NCBI GenBank assembly: GCA_028716245.1
Contig: JAQUQW010000002.1
Span: 229,346-293,345, forward strand
Direction: 5' to 3'
From: Candidatus Omnitrophota bacterium
GTDB taxonomy: Bacteria > Omnitrophota > Gorgyraeia > Gygaellales > Profunditerraquicolaceae
Length of the DNA: 64,000 bases
Under the pieces are notes generated by a model that was not told the origin of the DNA, made no database searches, and worked only from the letters and a program-made list of their open reading frames with translations. The position numbers were made by a program, and so were the translations under genes. Of the stretch, positions 3,641 through 44,745 are shown piece by piece (position 1 is the stretch's first letter; every line of letters begins with the position of its first letter).

Positions 3641-4690
3641 ATGCCAAAGACTAAAATAATCTGCACTTTAGGGCCGGCTTCAAGCAAAGAAAATGTTTTG
3701 ATCAAGATGATGGGCGCCGGTATGGCAGTGGCAAGGTTAAATTTCTCTCACTCTACCTCAAAGGTTCATTTAGCCCGGATACGGCTGATAAGGAAACTAA
3801 ATAAAAAATATCGCCTAAATATCAAGATATTGGGGGATTTGGAGGGTTACCGCATAAGGGTGGGTAGATTAGAAGGAGGTCAGGCGATCAAGGTAAATAA
3901 AGGGCAGGTCGTTTGGTTGACACAAGAAAATACTTTAGGAAAAGGCAGCCTGATACCATTTGATTACAAAGGCCCTTTAAGCAAGATCTGCAAAGGCCAA
4001 TACATTTATATTGATGATGGTAATATCGCCCTTATAGTTTTAGGGGGCCGGATAAATAGATTAAAGGCTAAAGTGGTTATTCCCGGGTTGATTAAAGAGC
4101 GCAAAGGCATAAATATGCCCGGAGTAAAAATGAGCTTTAAAGGATTGACAGCCAAAGACAAGGAGGATATCCGTTTTTGTTTAGAAAATAAAGTTGATTA
4201 TCTAGCCCAGTCTTTTGTAAGGAGTAAGGACGATATCCTCGTTATTAGGGAATATCTTAAGGATTGTGCGTATAAATGCAAGATCATTGCAAAAATTGAG
4301 AACCGGGAAGGTATTAAAAATATTGCTGAAATAATCAAAGTCTGCGATGGAATTATGGTCGCCAGAGGCGATCTGGGCGTCTCCATTCCTATATATGAGG
4401 TGCCGATAGTGCAAAAAGAAATAATCAAAAAATGTAACCGGGCAAAAGAATTTGTCATTACCGCTACCCAGATGCTGGAGAGCATGACTGAAAACCGTAT
4501 CCCTGAAAGGGCGGAGGTTTCAGACGTGGCTAACGCCATATTGGACGGTTCGGATTACCTGATGCTTTCCGCGGAGACTGCGGTTGGTTTATATCCTGCG
4601 GAATGCGTTGATATGATGAATAAAATAATTAAGTTTACGGAGAAGAACACCCCTGGCGATCTCCGTCTTACGAGACCGGGCAAGAGATAA
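3641..4690 (+). CDS. pyk: pyruvate kinase (short form, lacks C-terminal allosteric domain)
   Basis: N-term [12 protein letters not shown]...LNFSHS and [12 protein letters not shown] motifs; only 349 aa. Confidence 0.8.
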
Positions 4691-4729
4691 TATTTTATTC
4701 CTCGAAGAGTGGCCGTTGTTAAATTTTAG

Positions 4730-4757
4730 TTGACAAACCGCAAAAATAGTGTATACT
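4730..4757 (+). promoter_or_regulatory. sigma70-type promoter for csp (TTGACA-16-TATACT), followed by ~95 nt leader
   Basis: TTGACA at ~4730-4735, TATACT at ~4752-4757; long 5'UTR typical of cold-shock mRNAs. Confidence 0.5.
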
Positions 4758-4854
4758 TTTTGGCGTAGTGAGCAAGGGAGTAGAAGTCTTGAACCGTAAG
4801 GAGAAAGAATGACACACCTTACGGTTTTTTTATGGAAAGGAGGAAACAGAGAAA

Positions 4855-8528: not shown

Positions 8529-9460
8529 ACGGAGGAACTGATATGAGTATTATAGTGTTGGGCACAGTGGCATTAGACAGCGTAAAAACTCCTTTTGGCA
8601 GGCGTAAAGAATTACTCGGAGGATCAGCGGCACATTTTTCCATGGCTGCCCGGCTTTTTACCAAAGTTAACCTGATCGCCATTGTGGGAAGTGATTTTCC
8701 AAAGGAACACATCGCTTTTTTAAGAAGCAAGGGGATTAATCTTAGTTCTTTGATCATGGAGGGCGGTAAAACCTTCAGGTGGGAAGGCGAATATAAAGGG
8801 GATTTAAATTCAGCCCTTACCATTAACACCGAGTTGGGCGTGCTTTCGGTATTTAAACCGCAGGTTTCTGAAGAGCAGCGTAAAATAGAAAACATATTCT
8901 TAGCCAACGTTGACCCGGATATTCAGGAGCACCTTTTGCGTAAGATGCATTCTCCGAAATTAGTCGGTTTAGACAGCATGAACTATTGGATTAATACTAA
9001 GCGCAGAGAACTGATCAAACTGCTTAAGCTTATAGATATTTACGTGGCTAATGACCAGGAGGCCAGGGATTTATCAGGAGAGAGTAATTTAATTAAGGCA
9101 GCCAAACGCCTCTCCTCTTTTGGTCCTAAAATGGTGCTGATTAAAAAAGGGGAGCATGGAGTTTTATTTTACAGCCGGTCTTTGCATGCTGCAAACGGGT
9201 TGGTTTTTTCTCTTCCGGCATATCCGGTTGAGAAGGTAATCGATCCTACGGGAGCAGGGGATACTTTTGCCGGAGGGTTCATGGGTTATCTGGCAAAGAG
9301 TGGTAAGATAAACTCTTCAGCAATAAAGAAGGCATTGGCTTACGGGACTGTGGCCGCTTCTTTTAACGTGGAAGATTTTGGTCTGTATCGGACAAGCAAA
9401 CTGGTCCCGCAAGACCTACAAAGACGTCTAGTTAAATTTAAGAGCTGTTTTTTATTTTAA
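8510..9460 (+). CDS. PfkB-family carbohydrate kinase (ribokinase-like); true start possibly ATG ~8543
   Basis: DPTGAGDTFAGGFMGYL PfkB C-terminal signature; N-terminal GG motif region. Confidence 0.7.
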   Translation: MVNSEVNGGTDMSIIVLGTVALDSVKTPFGRRKELLGGSAAHFSMAARLFTKVNLIAIVGSDFPKEHIAFLRSKGINLSSLIMEGGKTFRWEGEYKGDLNSALTINTELGVLSVFKPQVSEEQRKIENIFLANVDPDIQEHLLRKMHSPKLVGLDSMNYWINTKRRELIKLLKLIDIYVANDQEARDLSGESNLIKAAKRLSSFGPKMVLIKKGEHGVLFYSRSLHAANGLVFSLPAYPVEKVIDPTGAGDTFAGGFMGYLAKSGKINSSAIKKALAYGTVAASFNVEDFGLYRTSKLVPQDLQRRLVKFKSCFLF

Positions 9461-9464
9461 TTTT

Positions 9465-9559
9465 ACACCCCGCGCTTAGAGGAGTTGCGCGGGTGTGCCT
9501 TTGTGGGCAACACGCCGCGTTTATGAGGAATTACGCGGGTGTGGCCTTCTGGCCAAGGA
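9465..9559 (+). repeat. two tandem copies (A1 ~9465-9510, A2 ~9510-9559) of the conserved two-hairpin + AAGGAG leader module, immediately 5' of mscL
   Basis: ACACCCCGCGC-TTAGAGGAGTT-GCGCGGGTGT GCC-TTTGT-GGGC then ACACGCCGCG-TTTATGAGGAATT-ACGCGGGTGT GGCC-TTCT-GGCC AAGGAG; see findings. Confidence 0.8.
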
Positions 9560-9563
9560 GACA

Positions 9564-9875
9564 ATGATGAAAGAGATCCGCGAAGAATTTTTGAGGTTTA
9601 TCAAGTCCTACGGAGTGATCGGCGTGGCTATCGGTATTGTTATGGGCCAGGCGGTAGCCAAGGTTATTACGGTTATCGTCGAAGGCCTGGTTATGCCGGT
9701 CTTAGAAGTATTACTTCCCGGGAACAAATGGCAGGAAGCGGTTTTACATCTCTGGAGGATAAATATCAAGATTGGCTTGATTATCGCCGGGCTGATCGAT
9801 TTTTTTATTATCTCGGTGGTAGTTTTCTTTTTGGTTAAATATATATTAAAGATCGAACCTGGTCATAAACATTAA
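9564..9875 (+). CDS. mscL: large-conductance mechanosensitive channel
   Basis: MMKEIREEFLRFIKSYGVIGVAIGIVMGQA... two TM helices, ~104 aa; the ORF-track start at 9495 reads through the repeat and is rejected. Confidence 0.85.
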   Translation: MMKEIREEFLRFIKSYGVIGVAIGIVMGQAVAKVITVIVEGLVMPVLEVLLPGNKWQEAVLHLWRINIKIGLIIAGLIDFFIISVVVFFLVKYILKIEPGHKH

Positions 9876-9884
9876 CACCCCGCG

Positions 9885-9930
9885 TTTATAAGGAATTACG
9901 CGGGTGTGCCCGTGTGGGCAAGGAGGACAA
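9885..9930 (+). repeat. leader module copy B, 5' of yqeY-like gene
   Basis: ACACCCCGCG-TTTATAAGGAATT-ACGCGGGTGT GCCC-GTGT-GGGC AAGGAGG, ATG at 9933. Confidence 0.8.
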
Positions 9931-9932
9931 TT

Positions 9933-10385
9933 ATGTTGGCAGAAAAGATTTTCAACGATTATAAGGAGGCAATGAAAGCCCGCGACACTCTGAAGAGTTC
10001 GGTTTTAAGTTTTTTACGGGCAGATATGCTTAATTTGGCAACCGCCAAGAAAAAAGATAAGCTCGATGACGCCGAAATTATTACCGTAATCAAGAAACAA
10101 ATAAAGCAGCGCCAGGATTCGATTGAACAGTTTACCAAGGGCGCAAGGCCGGAAGCTGCGGAAAAAGAGAAAAAAGAATCAGAGATTCTCAAAGGTTATT
10201 TACCCGCCCAGATGCCGGTTGAGGAAATTAAACGTTTGATTGAAGAAGCGGTTGCGGCAACCGGAGCAAGCGGCGCCAAAGATATGGGCCGGCTGATGAA
10301 GGAGCTGTCTGTAAAGATCGCCGGAGGGGCTGACGGGAAACTGGTCAGTGATTTGGTAAGGCAAAGGTTAAGTCCTCCTTCCTAA
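9933..10385 (+). CDS. GatB/YqeY-domain protein
   Basis: ~150 aa; MLAEKIFNDYKEAMKARD... typical YqeY family N-terminus. Confidence 0.8.
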   Translation: MLAEKIFNDYKEAMKARDTLKSSVLSFLRADMLNLATAKKKDKLDDAEIITVIKKQIKQRQDSIEQFTKGARPEAAEKEKKESEILKGYLPAQMPVEEIKRLIEEAVAATGASGAKDMGRLMKELSVKIAGGADGKLVSDLVRQRLSPPS

Positions 10386-11670: not shown

Positions 11671-11732
11671 TGGTTTCACTCAAATTTCAGTTGATTTATT
11701 TATATATTTTGTTAAAATTAGTGTTGGTAACA

Positions 11733-11780
11733 ACCCGCGCTTAAAGGTATTGCGCGGGTGTGCCCTTGTGGGCAAGGAGG
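11733..11780 (+). repeat. leader module copy C (orphan: ~80 nt upstream of next start codon)
   Basis: CAACCCGCGC-TTAAAGGTATT-GCGCGGGTGT GCCC-TTGT-GGGC AAGGAGG. Confidence 0.8.
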
Positions 11781-11859
11781 TGAATTAAATTCCCGCAATT
11801 TGATAATAATAAAACGTCATAATAACAAATTTTAATAAATTATAGAGAGGAGAGTAAGT

Positions 11860-12309
11860 ATGAAGAGGTTATTAAGTTTAGGGGTAGTGGTTTTGATGTT
11901 GGCGGGATTATCCGGTTGCGGTAAGAAACAAGAAGCAGAGGAGTTGCAGCCCATTACCATGGAGTCCCTGAGTACGCCCAGCAGCCCGGCCGCGGCTATG
12001 CCGGACATAAAGGCCCAAGAGTCCAAAATTTTAACTGCTCCGGCAGTTACCCAAGCCAAAGAAGTTGTACCTGTACCGCCGCAGGGGCCTTATAAGCCTA
12101 CGGGCATCGAAATCCAGACTGCTTTAAAGAACGCCGGTTTCTACACCGGCAATATCGACGGAAAAATCGGCCCGAAGAGCAAGAAGGCGATCGAAGATTT
12201 TCAAACCGCAAATGGCCTCAAAGCTGATGGCAAGGTGGGCACCAAGACCTGGGAAGCCCTGAGTAAGCATCTGAGCGCTGAAGCCGCTCCGGTTAAGCAT
12301 AAGCGGTAA
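11860..12309 (+). CDS. peptidoglycan-binding (PG_binding_1) lipoprotein
   Basis: Signal peptide with lipobox LAGLSGC; C-terminal LKNAGFYTGNIDGKIGPKSKKAIEDFQTANGLKADGKVGTKTWEAL matches PG-binding domain. Confidence 0.7.
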   Translation: MKRLLSLGVVVLMLAGLSGCGKKQEAEELQPITMESLSTPSSPAAAMPDIKAQESKILTAPAVTQAKEVVPVPPQGPYKPTGIEIQTALKNAGFYTGNIDGKIGPKSKKAIEDFQTANGLKADGKVGTKTWEALSKHLSAEAAPVKHKR

Positions 12310-16406: not shown

Positions 16407-16460
16407 ACACCCCGCGCTTATAAGGAATTGCGCGGGTGTGCCCTTGTGGGCAAGGAGGAA
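16407..16460 (+). repeat. leader module copy D
   Basis: ACACCCCGCGC-TTATAAGGAATT-GCGCGGGTGT GCCC-TTGT-GGGC AAGGAGG aacaATG. Confidence 0.8.
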
Positions 16461-18270: not shown

Positions 18271-18378
18271 GTGAAATTAGGAGGATGGATTTTTTTAATT
18301 TTTTCCTGGGGGCTGATTATTGGTTTGACAGTTTTTTGTTTTTTAAAAGTTTTTTCAAAAAACACTCCGCGCTTATAA
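18271..18378 (+). CDS. candidate 35-aa single-TM micro-protein (MetS-like NSS partner?)
   Basis: GTG start 9 nt after GGGAGG; VKLGGWIFLIFSWGLIIGLTVFCFLKVFSKNTPRL; not in ORF track (<60 aa); 3' end runs into repeat copy E. Confidence 0.3.
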   Translation: MKLGGWIFLIFSWGLIIGLTVFCFLKVFSKNTPRL

Positions 18379-18412
18379 GGTATTGCGCGGGTATGCCCTT
18401 GTGGGCAAGGAG
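18361..18412 (+). repeat. leader module copy E
   Basis: AACACTCCGCGC-TTATAAGGTATT-GCGCGGGTAT GCCC-TTGT-GGGC AAGGAG ctaagATG. Confidence 0.8.
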
Positions 18413-18949: not shown

Positions 18950-18963
18950 TTTTTAGTTTGTAA

Positions 18964-19000
18964 GGCGAACTTTATTTAAAGTTTGCCTTATTTTTTGGCT
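18964..19000 (+). terminator. terminator after tRNA-Phe
   Basis: TAAGGCGAACTTTATTTAAAGTTTGCCTTA stem-loop followed by TTTTTTGG. Confidence 0.5.
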
Positions 19001-30990: not shown

Positions 30991-31287
30991 CGCGGGGTGG
31001 AGCAGCCTGGTAGCTCGCAAGGCTCAATTTTGGGCTCTTCAGCCGGTAACGGTTGAAGGATAACCTGTCAAATTCGGTGAAGCCTTAATTTGCAAAGGTA
31101 ATACCGAGCCAAGTTCGCCAATATTTGTGGTGAAAAGGTGTAGAGACTAAACGGCAGGGGCCCGCCATAGGATTTTGGCGGGTCAAGATATAGTCCAGAC
31201 TACGAATCCACTATTTGTGGAGCAGCGTAAGCTGAAGTAGCAAGCATAACCTTGAGGTCGTCCGTTCAAATCGGGCCCCCGCAACCA
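30991..31287 (+). tRNA. initiator-type tRNA-Met (anticodon CAU) interrupted by a group I intron in the anticodon loop; exons ~30991-31024 and ~31245-31287 (77 nt incl. CCA)
   Basis: Exons spliced in silico give CGCGGGGTGGAGCAGCCTGGTAGCTCGCAAGGCT|CATAACCTTGAGGTCGTCCGTTCAAATCGGGCCCCCGCAACCA, near-identical to canonical bacterial tRNA-fMet (C1:A72 mismatch, A11:U24). Confidence 0.85.
31025..31244 (+). ncRNA. group I self-splicing intron (IC3-like, Azoarcus/Anabaena tRNA-intron type)
   Basis: Contains GUGUAGAGACUAAACGGCAGGGG (P7 5'/J7-3/P3) and CAAGAUAUAGUCCAGAC (P7 3') core elements and GUCAAAUUCGG...CCGAGCCAAG segments matching the Azoarcus tRNA-Ile intron; terminal G before exon 2; P1 with U.G wobble can be drawn. 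Confidence 0.8.
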
Positions 31288-31290
31288 ACT

Positions 31291-31320
31291 AAACCCGCTT
31301 TAAAGAGCGGGTTTTTTTGT
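31291..31320 (+). terminator. rho-independent terminator after tRNA-fMet
   Basis: AAACCCGCTTTAAAGAGCGGGTTTTTTTGT. Confidence 0.75.
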
Positions 31321-44129: not shown

Positions 44130-44704
44130 AGATAATTGCGGGCCTGGGAAATCCCGGTTTGATCTACGCGGGCTCCCGGCACAACATAGGCTGCGCGATT
44201 TTAAAATCTTTAGCCCGTTCTTTAAAAGTTTCGCTTAAAAGAGACAATTCGGTTCTTGCTTTAATAGGCACGGCTAAATTGGGCTCGCATAATGTGATCT
44301 TGGCCCTGCCGCAGACTTTTATGAATTTAAGCGGTAAAGCCGTCAGCGCTTTGCTTAAGAAATTTAAAGGCGCTCCGTCCGATCTTTTGGTGGTTTGCGA
44401 TGATTTGGATTTGGAGTTGGGCAGGATGAAGATTCGCCCCAGCGGCTCAAGCGGCGGGCACCGGGGGTTACTTTCGATCATTGAACATTTGGGAACACAA
44501 AATTTTAGCCGCCTGCGTATCGGGATCGGCCGGCCAAAAAATTCAAACGATGCCGCGGATTATGTGCTGGCGGGTTTTTTACGCGGCCAGAAAATGCTGG
44601 TCCAGGAAGTAAAAGAGGATGCCGTCAACTGCTGCCTAAGCTGGGCGGAAAAAGGCGTAGTTGAAACCATGAATCTGTTTAACACAAAGACACCCCGCGC
44701 TTAA
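44126..44704 (+). CDS. pth: peptidyl-tRNA hydrolase
   Basis: IIAGLGNPG...RHNIG N-term, HRGLLSIIEHLG; C-terminal codons ...TPRA* lie inside repeat copy F. Confidence 0.9.
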   Translation: MKIIAGLGNPGLIYAGSRHNIGCAILKSLARSLKVSLKRDNSVLALIGTAKLGSHNVILALPQTFMNLSGKAVSALLKKFKGAPSDLLVVCDDLDLELGRMKIRPSGSSGGHRGLLSIIEHLGTQNFSRLRIGIGRPKNSNDAADYVLAGFLRGQKMLVQEVKEDAVNCCLSWAEKGVVETMNLFNTKTPRA

Positions 44705-44745
44705 AGGAATTGCGCGGGTGTTGTCTACGTAGACAAGGAGCAGAA
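44690..44745 (+). repeat. leader module copy F (second hairpin replaced by TGTCTAC/GTAGACA covarying stem)
   Basis: ACACCCCGCGC-TTAAAGGAATT-GCGCGGGTGT TGTCT-ACGT-AGACA AGGAG cagaaATG. Confidence 0.8.

Follow-up and report, generated by a model that had tools for sequence, protein, structure and literature searches.

Repetitive extragenic palindromes (REPs) are 20–40-bp palindromes that carry an unpaired GTAG or CGTC tag, often form inverted pairs and lie mostly downstream of open reading frames (ORFs) (PMC3733652, PMC2817692), and the gene of the REP-associated tyrosine transposase (RAYT) is flanked by two of them (PMC2817692). Here we describe a 64,000-nt stretch of Candidatus Omnitrophota DNA (contig JAQUQW010000002.1, positions 229,346–293,345; hereafter the window) with seven copies of a small two-hairpin element associated with Shine-Dalgarno (SD) sequences. 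Comparison with close relatives indicates that it is probably an insertion-polymorphic mobile hairpin element, similar to REPs and to miniature inverted-repeat transposable elements (MITEs), whose insertion is directed at, or restricted to, the position directly 5' of the SD core. It may also play a secondary part in expression, which is unproven. Rfam gave no relevant match (gathering thresholds on the window; E≤10 on 9400–9960), in agreement with an earlier inspection of the bare sequence (the sequence-only reading) that recognised no named family, and our literature searches found no published description of the element in Omnitrophota.

Each unit covers about 46–50 nt of non-coding DNA and consists of a P1 hairpin followed by a P2 mini-hairpin, after which comes (A)AGGAG(G). 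P1, approximately ACAC(N)CCGCGY/RCGCGG-GTGT, is GC-rich and has 10–12 bp, one bulged base and an 11–12-nt loop. P2 has 5–6 bp and a tetraloop, begins 0–1 nt after P1 and ends 0–1 nt before the SD. The pattern CCGCGY-N8-18-RCGCGG occurs seven times in the 64-kb window against 0.07 expected, and a covariance model with its filters off recovered these seven copies and no others, at the coordinates and on the + strand where the sequence-only reading had placed them. That reading let every copy end before a start codon. This holds for five copies, in which the start codon lies 5–9 nt past GGAG (mscL, yqeY, a gene for a 77-aa protein, a DUF3568 lipoprotein gene and rpsF, by Pfam); it fails for copy 1, the upstream member of a tandem pair, and for copy 4, whose AGGAGG precedes no start. 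The restriction to the + strand is uninformative inside the window, since 64 of the 67 long ORFs lie on that strand, which also has a strong positive GC skew.

The presence or absence of the element was compared at syntenic loci of relatives, which were chosen via their proteins and not via the motif: L124 and L125 around rpsF, and L126–L129 around yqeY. YqeY is 95% identical to that of the window in L128, 91% in L126, 85% in L129 and 82% in L127, and S6 of L124 is 79% identical. L126–L129 share the gene order of the window from NadA to DUF3568, about 10 kb of conserved synteny. Along this same stretch, the covariance model without filters found six copies in the window, one in L128, one in L126 and none in L127 and L129, and the single copy of L126 lies at pfkB, where the site is empty in the window. 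No copy was found in the 20 kb around rpsF of L124, and the divergent copy at rpsF of L125 is barely detected at 16 bits, an example of how the model under-detects divergent copies.

Filled and empty sites delimit the inserted segment, given here in square brackets. At the DUF3568 site, the window reads TCAAAAAA[CACTCC…GTGGGCAA]GGAGCTAAGATG, the element ending in …GGGCAA, versus TCAAAAAAGGAGATAAGATG at the empty site of L126; L128 is filled by the same insertion with a nested 20-nt palindrome, and L127 is without the element. At the site of the 77-aa gene, the window has TTCTAAGCAA[…]GGAGGAACAATGCC versus TTCTAATCAGGAGGAATAATGCC in L128, and L127 is empty as well. In the leader of the PG_binding gene, the window has GTTGGTAA[…]GGAGGTGAA versus GTTGGCAAGGAGGTGAA in L128; both L127 and L128 read …GCAAGGAGGTGAA… with the element absent, and the box without the element is also present in L126. 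The yqeY site is empty in L127 and L129 and is represented in L128 by an 11-nt remnant, ACACCCCGCGC, fused to AAGGAGG. At rpsF, the window reads AACACAA[AGACACC…GTAGACAA]GGAGCAGAAATG versus AACACAAGGAGCAAAAATG at the empty site of L124. The indel thus delimited is P1 plus P2 alone (~48 nt), with the junction (C)AA|GGAG and a 1–2-nt A/AA ambiguity. The empty sites already carry GGAG or AGGAGG and, except for the box of copy 4, the start codon too. The SD core therefore lies outside the repeat unit, and the earlier suggestion that it forms part of the repeat is not supported. Gains or losses appear to have been independent in different lineages, some of them after the split of genomes with 95% identical YqeY, their polarity being assigned by parsimony on few taxa.

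The same loci hold other small rearrangements. mscL, bracketed by element copies in the window (9461–9932), is absent between pfkB and yqeY in L126, L127, L128 and L129, which suggests a gain or loss associated with the repeats. Three loci (L128, 18226–18295; L012, 1060–1223; L042, 4553–4653) contain a second, very small palindrome (CCTGCCTGCCGGCAGGCAGG and longer forms) inside copies of the element, where it sits in the P1 3' arm or enlarges P2, suggesting that another mini-repeat family lands in hairpins. Unrelated palindromic or tandem repeats, for example CGAAACAGTTTCC…GGAAACTGTTTCG and a 43-nt unit repeated twice, take up the slot directly before the SD at yqeY, the 77-aa gene and DUF3568 in L126 (9880–9995 and 16490–16560) and L129 (16600–16690). 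In these genomes, the spacer next to the SD appears to attract small structured inserts in general.

An exact-pattern scan with one genome per species returned at least 120 stretches. Its pattern required CAAGGAG, and the scan alone therefore cannot show a linkage to the SD; the SD-independent sample is smaller and consists of the window, the six protein-anchored loci L124–L129 (~120 kb) and ~26 extra copies in flanks. At least 114 pattern matches, from at least 59 assemblies, fall in metagenome-assembled genomes (MAGs) of Candidatus Omnitrophota/Omnitrophica or in mislabelled binned contigs, and the other six among the matches listed are chance-like and come from high-GC bacteria. Named genomes bearing the element are UBA6233, UBA1562 and CG1_02_44_16 of Velamenicoccia (orders Gygaellales and Velamenicoccales) and GWA2_41_15 of Gorgyraia, two proposed classes inside the GTDB class Koll11 with genomes of ~1.5–1.7 Mb (supplement of PMC10066038). 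YqeY of the window has a 100% identical counterpart in an NCBI 'Candidatus Omnitrophica' MAG. A phage origin was considered and discarded, as the single pattern match on a viral contig was not recognised by the covariance model. A perfect copy on a 2.2-kb contig labelled as a Bacillota MAG (L088, QLUI01000370.1) most likely marks a mis-binned Omnitrophota contig, and several 'uncultured Planctomycetales' third-party-annotation (TPA) MAGs combine the element with Omnitrophota-like genes. In two species, the element precedes Cys-rich ORFs of fewer than 40 aa, MSCG(R/S)C…, which are uncharacterised small peptides (L114 from ~823 onward; L028 downstream of 4202–4257, minus strand).

nhmmer located 146 copies in the 120 listed loci, on both contig strands and all intergenic. 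In 122 of them, GGAG and the start of an ORF of at least 40 aa follow 0–11 nt downstream in sense orientation, and most of the remaining 24 are upstream members of tandem arrays. These arrays run head-to-tail, and only the last copy touches the SD. Their junctions are exactly …GGGCAA|CACC… or …GACAA|GACACC…, as repeated insertion at one junction would produce, so the arrays are consistent with such a history. Of 126 copies, 120 have the positive-GC-skew orientation, and the remaining six (at rpsT, rpmH and other genes) likewise point towards their gene; orientation follows the gene, not the replication strand. One locus holds two copies in opposite orientations. The upstream neighbour gene runs in the same direction in 107 cases and is divergent in 10, its stop codon lying −1 to +10 nt from the first P1 base in about half of the cases, and in more than half the element occupies the entire stop-to-SD spacer. 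Coupling to the stop codon was examined and rejected, because at empty sites, too, very little sequence separates stop and SD, which accounts for the tight abutment.

Within the window, 6 of 15 extragenic sense-strand AAGGAG sites are occupied (copy 4 counted); AAGGAG stands no more than 22 nt from the start in nine of 66 genes, and the element is present at five of these nine. The position of copy 4 beside an AGGAGG box without a start codon argues for sequence targeting and not for selection for a translational role. The leader in question, that of the PG_binding_1 gene (window 11691–11860, with equivalents in L126, L127 and L128), is conserved and contains a promoter-like TTGATT-16-TGnTAAAAT followed by a conserved AGGAGGTGAA box ~80 nt before the real SD and start of the gene. 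L129 lacks the box, which may act as an SD-like stabiliser or belong to a tiny leader ORF as its SD.

The 120 listed downstream proteins match 139 Pfam families without functional coherence. Recurrent matches are PGM-family proteins, ketol-acid reductoisomerase (IlvC), type III glutamine synthetase, EF-Tu, Hsp70/DnaK, S6, S13, L7/L12, SSB and PhoU. ClpP, ACP and further ribosomal proteins were recognised from their N-terminal sequences, and ribosomal-protein genes number 17 in all. The sequence-only reading had held that a pure dispersed repeat should lie at random positions and orientations relative to genes; the copies are strictly SD-adjacent and sense, yet they belong to an insertion-polymorphic repeat, so such a test does not discriminate. 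A REP-like dispersed element, which that reading had listed among its alternatives, comes closest to the evidence.

A fixed-distance promoter upstream of P1 was not found, and no information content was seen beyond about −8. The promoter-like sites that can be recognised are 11–40 nt upstream of the element, so that it is not a 5'-terminal stabiliser of primary transcripts, another of the roles proposed earlier. An intrinsic terminator or attenuator between cistrons might be suspected, since P1 forms a GC hairpin of high stability directly behind many stop codons. However, the element has no U-tract, as had been pointed out before, canonical terminators with hairpin and U-tract exist in the genome (e.g. 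18960–18991), and the SD and gene follow directly with no promoter between. We therefore regard termination as extremely improbable.

Alignment of the 120 listed copies, from 61 genomes, revealed that 98.4% of cells are paired and that both helices have compensatory changes, with double changes at three of five P2 pairs and at inner and outer P1 pairs. Divergent copies swap the whole P1 top (CCCGGCGC/GCGCCGGG, CCCAGCGT/ACGCTGGG, CCCAACCC/GGGTTGGG) and keep the loop and the ACACC/GGUGU base. Two subtypes have the same total length: subtype A, with a 12-nt loop, no linker and P2 of GCCC/GGGC, and subtype B, with an 11-nt loop, one U as linker and P2 of GUCU/AGAC. Transitional pairing intermediates number 12 for G·U and 12 for A·C (small counts), and this equality is not the usual trace of selection on a sense-strand RNA helix. 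The P1 loop has one invariant G, an A and a 3' UU among the listed copies. GGA is found in 75 of the 120 loops (62%) and A(N)GGA in 42, GGU and UGA variants being common; the conserved AUAAGGAAU/GGA loop seen in the window is accordingly not a family-wide feature.

These data bear on a translational operator, in which CsrA/RsmA would bind the loop GGA and the SD GGA, or another reader of the P1 loop would control 30S loading on a large regulon. The loop with its invariant positions on a covarying stem, the fixed spacing to the SD and tandem arrays resembling multi-site leaders would suit it, and the two GGA motifs are ~33 nt apart, within the range for CsrA dimers. Nevertheless, the dual-site geometry put forward by the sequence-only reading is at odds with the loop variants, with the presence or absence of the element at orthologous genes in relatives of 82–95% identity, with the functionally incoherent downstream genes and with stems that show no RNA-type wobble bias. 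Furthermore, csrA, fliW and hfq were not found in ~1 Mb sampled from ~60 genomes (tblastn for CsrA and FliW; a weak test on far too small a sample). Such an operator thus seems very unlikely.

Folding predictions gave an SD unpaired probability of 0.54 for element-bearing genes versus 0.45 for control genes with GGAG (p=0.003). The value with the element, 0.56, does not differ significantly from 0.52 after in silico deletion and exceeds 0.49 with the P1 3' arm mutated (p=4e-4). Strong insulation of the SD was rejected on these grounds: the gain in accessibility over controls is small, and relative to in silico deletion there is none. The insertion is thus predicted to be structurally self-contained and roughly neutral for the SD, and loss of pairing after insertion would be mildly harmful, which could maintain compensatory changes without a positive function.

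We therefore favour a model in which integration would be targeted by the sequence (A)AGGAG, with the junction …(C)AA|GGAG…, and would be catalysed by an enzyme acting on hairpin DNA or proceed by microhomology-mediated copying. In the mRNA leader, the two self-contained hairpins would leave the SD about as accessible as before, and insertions would be tolerated because accessibility is little changed. Pairing would be kept up because a half-broken P1 frees a C-rich arm able to mask the SD. A benefit, for instance through blocking of nucleases or insulation of the SD, would be secondary and is unproven.

A search of ~1 Mb of sampled Omnitrophota DNA by tblastn with Y1 transposases returned two RAYT-like Y1 genes, scoring 67 and 55 bits with Pfam Y1_Tnp and 74 and 62 with NCBIfam REP_Tyr_transpos (cutoff 80). 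One of them (L080, gene 4173–4751 within 4105–4775) lies between inverted repeats of its own, TCTAACCAGGTTAAAAAG…CTTTTTAACCTGGTTAGA, distinct from the element, and forms a bona fide-looking unit of RAYT with REPs or terminal inverted repeats in Omnitrophota; the other (L084, 365–1051) has no flanking repeat. No RAYT gene flanked by the element was found in this sample. Hairpin-processing enzymes thus seem to exist in the clade, none of them tied to the element.

Spread without a transposase, by template switching or gene conversion between ribosome-binding site (RBS) regions with AAGGAG microhomology and a short A/CA(A) match, would accord with the result that no cognate transposase was found in this sample. 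It would also fit the junction ambiguity of only 1–2 nt with AAGGAG always on one flank, the direct repeat AGACA…AGACA that bounds subtype B, and the internal-deletion remnant of L128, which shows recombination or slippage acting on the element. On the other hand, 5–7 nt of microhomology is a short tract for conversion to work efficiently, protein recognition explains the conserved bulge and loop more readily, and the unrelated palindromic inserts in the same niche of relatives speak for a permissive or targeted site and not for homology. We consider this route improbable.

Several observations weigh against the mobile-element reading. No transposase or parent element was linked to the hairpin element in the ~1 Mb sample, and there is no clear target-site duplication or terminal inverted repeat; at any single site, a deletion could have occurred instead of a gain. 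At positions not forced by the search pattern, distances within genomes (0.25) are smaller than between genomes (0.29; permutation p=0.001), and some genomes have a sequence signature of their own, which speaks for the mobile element, but orthologous filled copies are closer still (0.19) than within-genome or random between-genome pairs. Some sites (ilvC, tuf, PGM-family, type III glutamine synthetase, dnaK and rpsF) are filled in several species with the same subtype kept. Identity at orthologous sites is 85% for the element, a value inflated by the search pattern, versus 52% for third codon positions. This similarity of orthologous copies means that they were retained for a long time under constraint or were homogenised, which would also fit a useful RNA element. 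Some insertions are accordingly old and constrained or homogenised, as reported for REP/REPIN populations, and a benefit to the host is possible but unproven. In addition, the downstream genes are enriched for highly expressed functions (ribosomal proteins, EF-Tu, Hsp70/DnaK, SSB, ClpP and ACP).

Some of these observations favour a portable expression module, that is, a domesticated repeat. Its hairpins would aid the downstream cistron as an exonuclease barrier, an RNase processing signal in operons, or an insulator or stacking platform presenting the SD, and it would have spread by advantageous gains; the module is compatible with mobility, but function would be the main reason for the distribution. 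Besides the persistent sites before highly expressed genes, divergence below that of synonymous positions and covariation of both helices, it draws on the slightly higher SD accessibility than in control genes, the P2 end 0–1 nt before the SD and the filling of whole stop-to-SD spacers. The 3' half of the loop (G-N-W-U-U) fits the RNase E consensus RN|WUU (PMC5222698) in 104 of the 120 listed copies, and fragments of RNase E/G-like homologues are present in the clade, but the match is a weak, degenerate 5-mer. Moreover, close relatives have the same genes without the element, in silico deletion leaves SD accessibility unchanged, one copy sits at an AGGAGG without a start codon, no G·U excess is seen, and the visible upstream promoters preclude P1 as a 5'-terminal stabiliser. 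The enrichment for highly expressed genes could simply follow from the canonical AAGGAG, found in nine of 66 window genes. We regard the module as a possible but rather unlikely primary explanation, and retain the mobile hairpin element as the probable one. The coordinates of its copies in the window are compiled in Table 1.

Table 1. Copies of the two-hairpin element and flanking SD cores in the 64-kb window.
Feature	Position	Strand	Score (bits)	Description
Copy 1	9465–9510	+	35.5 (P1 part)	Distal member of head-to-tail pair; adjoins stop codon (9458–9460) of PfkB-family gene
Copy 1 parts	P1 9465–9496; P2 9497–9508	+		P1 loop TTAGAGGAGTT; P2 followed by AA; no SD of its own
Copy 2	9511–9556	+	65.4	Proximal member of tandem pair
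Copy 2 parts		+		P1 with compensatory CGCGT/ACGCG pair; P2 GGCC-TTCT-GGCC, then AA
Copy 2 flank	GGAG 9557–9560; start 9564	+		mscL (MscL by Pfam)
Copy 3	9875–9921	+	73.2	Between mscL and yqeY
Copy 3 flank	GGAGG 9922–9926; ATG 9933	+		yqeY
Copy 4	11730–11775	+	68.8	Beside AGGAGGTGAA box (11775–11784) without start codon
Copy 4 surroundings	11691–11718; start 11860	+		Promoter-like TTGATT-16-TG-TAAAAT; real gene start with own SD
Copy 5	16407–16453	+	76.7	Followed by GGAGG and ATG (16463) of 77-aa protein
Copy 6	18362–18408	+	68.5	Followed by GGAG and ATG (18418) of DUF3568 lipoprotein
Copy 7	44690–44736	+	77	Followed by GGAG and rpsF ATG (44746)
Copy 7 form		+		Subtype B: 11-nt loop, extra U linker, P2 TGTCT-ACGT-AGACA
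SD cores flanking copies	9557–9560; 9922–9926; 11776–11780; 16454–16458; 18409–18412; 44737–44740	+		Target or flank, outside the repeat unit

Elsewhere in the window (30993–31290), an initiator-type tRNA-Met(CAU) gene (CGCGGGGTGGAGCAGCC…GGCTCA, intron, TAACCTTGAGG…CCCCCGCAACCA) is split in its anticodon loop by a group I intron (Rfam Intron_gpI, 31015–31220, 76 bits). ARAGORN did not call the interrupted tRNA-Met, which is followed by a hairpin and a T-run at about 31290–31320.

Tentatively, and with rather less confidence than its mobility, we propose that the element is mobile DNA that uses the SD itself, 5'-(C)AA|GGAG-3', as its target. The SD would offer a safe, transcribed landing site and the two-hairpin fold would keep the RBS working, which would amount to a new target-site strategy, possibly run by a Y1/HUH enzyme acting on hairpin DNA, and the element could also serve hosts as a portable and insulating leader cassette of strongly translated genes. 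Confirmation would establish a repeat family placed at nucleotide resolution by the ribosome-binding site, unlike REP, ERIC, Correia and BOX, and a selfish or semi-domesticated element colonising the tiny intergenic spacers of streamlined, uncultivated Omnitrophota with their translation signals intact. The filled and empty sites in close relatives constitute a natural experiment on 5'-leader structure and expression. Since their stems covary and their distance to the start codon is fixed, such repeats can pass for regulatory RNAs, and synteny-based checks for filled and empty sites are therefore needed before a motif is called a riboregulator.

Among known systems, the element can be compared with REP, BIME and REPIN sequences and their RAYT Y1/HUH enzymes (Nunvar 2010, PMC2817692; Di Nocera 2013, PMC3733652). 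It likewise consists of short, GC-rich, imperfect palindromes in many extragenic copies (7 per 64-kb window, and at least 114 matches in at least 59 assemblies) that are part of mRNAs, vary in presence between relatives, persist at some loci and carry genome-specific signatures, and RAYT-like Y1 genes occur in the same clade. However, its ends are (R)ACACC… and …GGGCAA or …GACAA, and GTAG is confined to the P2 stem in subtype B. Two different hairpins make up the unit, arrays are direct and head-to-tail only and not inverted pairs, and copies lie upstream of genes, at the SD and in sense orientation, whereas REPs are mostly downstream of ORFs and in both orientations. As tag, arrangement and position differ, and no RAYT gene beside the element was found in the ~1 Mb sample, we class the element among small interspersed palindromic repeats. 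Unlike in MITEs, its ends are not inverted repeats of each other, P1 being internal and P2 on one side only, and in place of a target duplication, filled and empty sites show an A/AA ambiguity of at most 1–2 nt.

The IS200/IS605 family and derived palindrome-associated elements are described in PMC6006769. The present unit resembles them in its hairpins at both ends and in the lack of an obvious target duplication. It also has a constant short flank, GGAG/AGGAG, the AGGAGG box without SD function included; read antisense, the element lies 3' of CTCC(TT). IS608 prefers the lagging-strand template. In contrast, 6 of 126 element copies have the negative-GC-skew orientation, following the gene rather than the replication strand, and for leading-strand genes the strand with the target 5' of the element would be the leading-strand template. 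The ends are also far more compact, and no TnpA-bearing parent was seen in the sampled DNA.

Correia elements of Neisseria, ERIC, and BOX/RUP of pneumococcus (background in PMC3049150) are likewise structured, non-autonomous repeats that insert into leaders and operons and may affect mRNA processing and expression. Those repeats, however, are delimited by terminal inverted repeats, TA duplications or both, are found in either orientation with an excess between convergent genes, and none is reported to abut the SD. Mycobacterial interspersed repetitive units (MIRUs) resemble the element in being intercistronic, oriented like the flanking genes and arranged in direct tandem arrays in operons, but they are not hairpin palindromes and are described as containing small ORFs that overlap neighbouring stop and start codons; to our knowledge, no SD-edge junction has been described for them. 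CsrA/RsmA leaders share a loop often with GGA, the GGA of the SD and, in some cases, several sites, but the loop GGA of the element is not conserved (62%) and the element is an indel-polymorphic repeat before unrelated genes. It further differs from cis-regulatory RNAs and riboswitches in its polymorphism among relatives of 82–95% identity, its 139 downstream Pfam families, its equal G·U and A·C counts (12 versus 12) and the lack of an Rfam match, and from intrinsic terminators in having no U-tract. Judged from these comparisons, what would distinguish the element is that it is placed in sense orientation and with nucleotide precision at the 5' edge of the SD.

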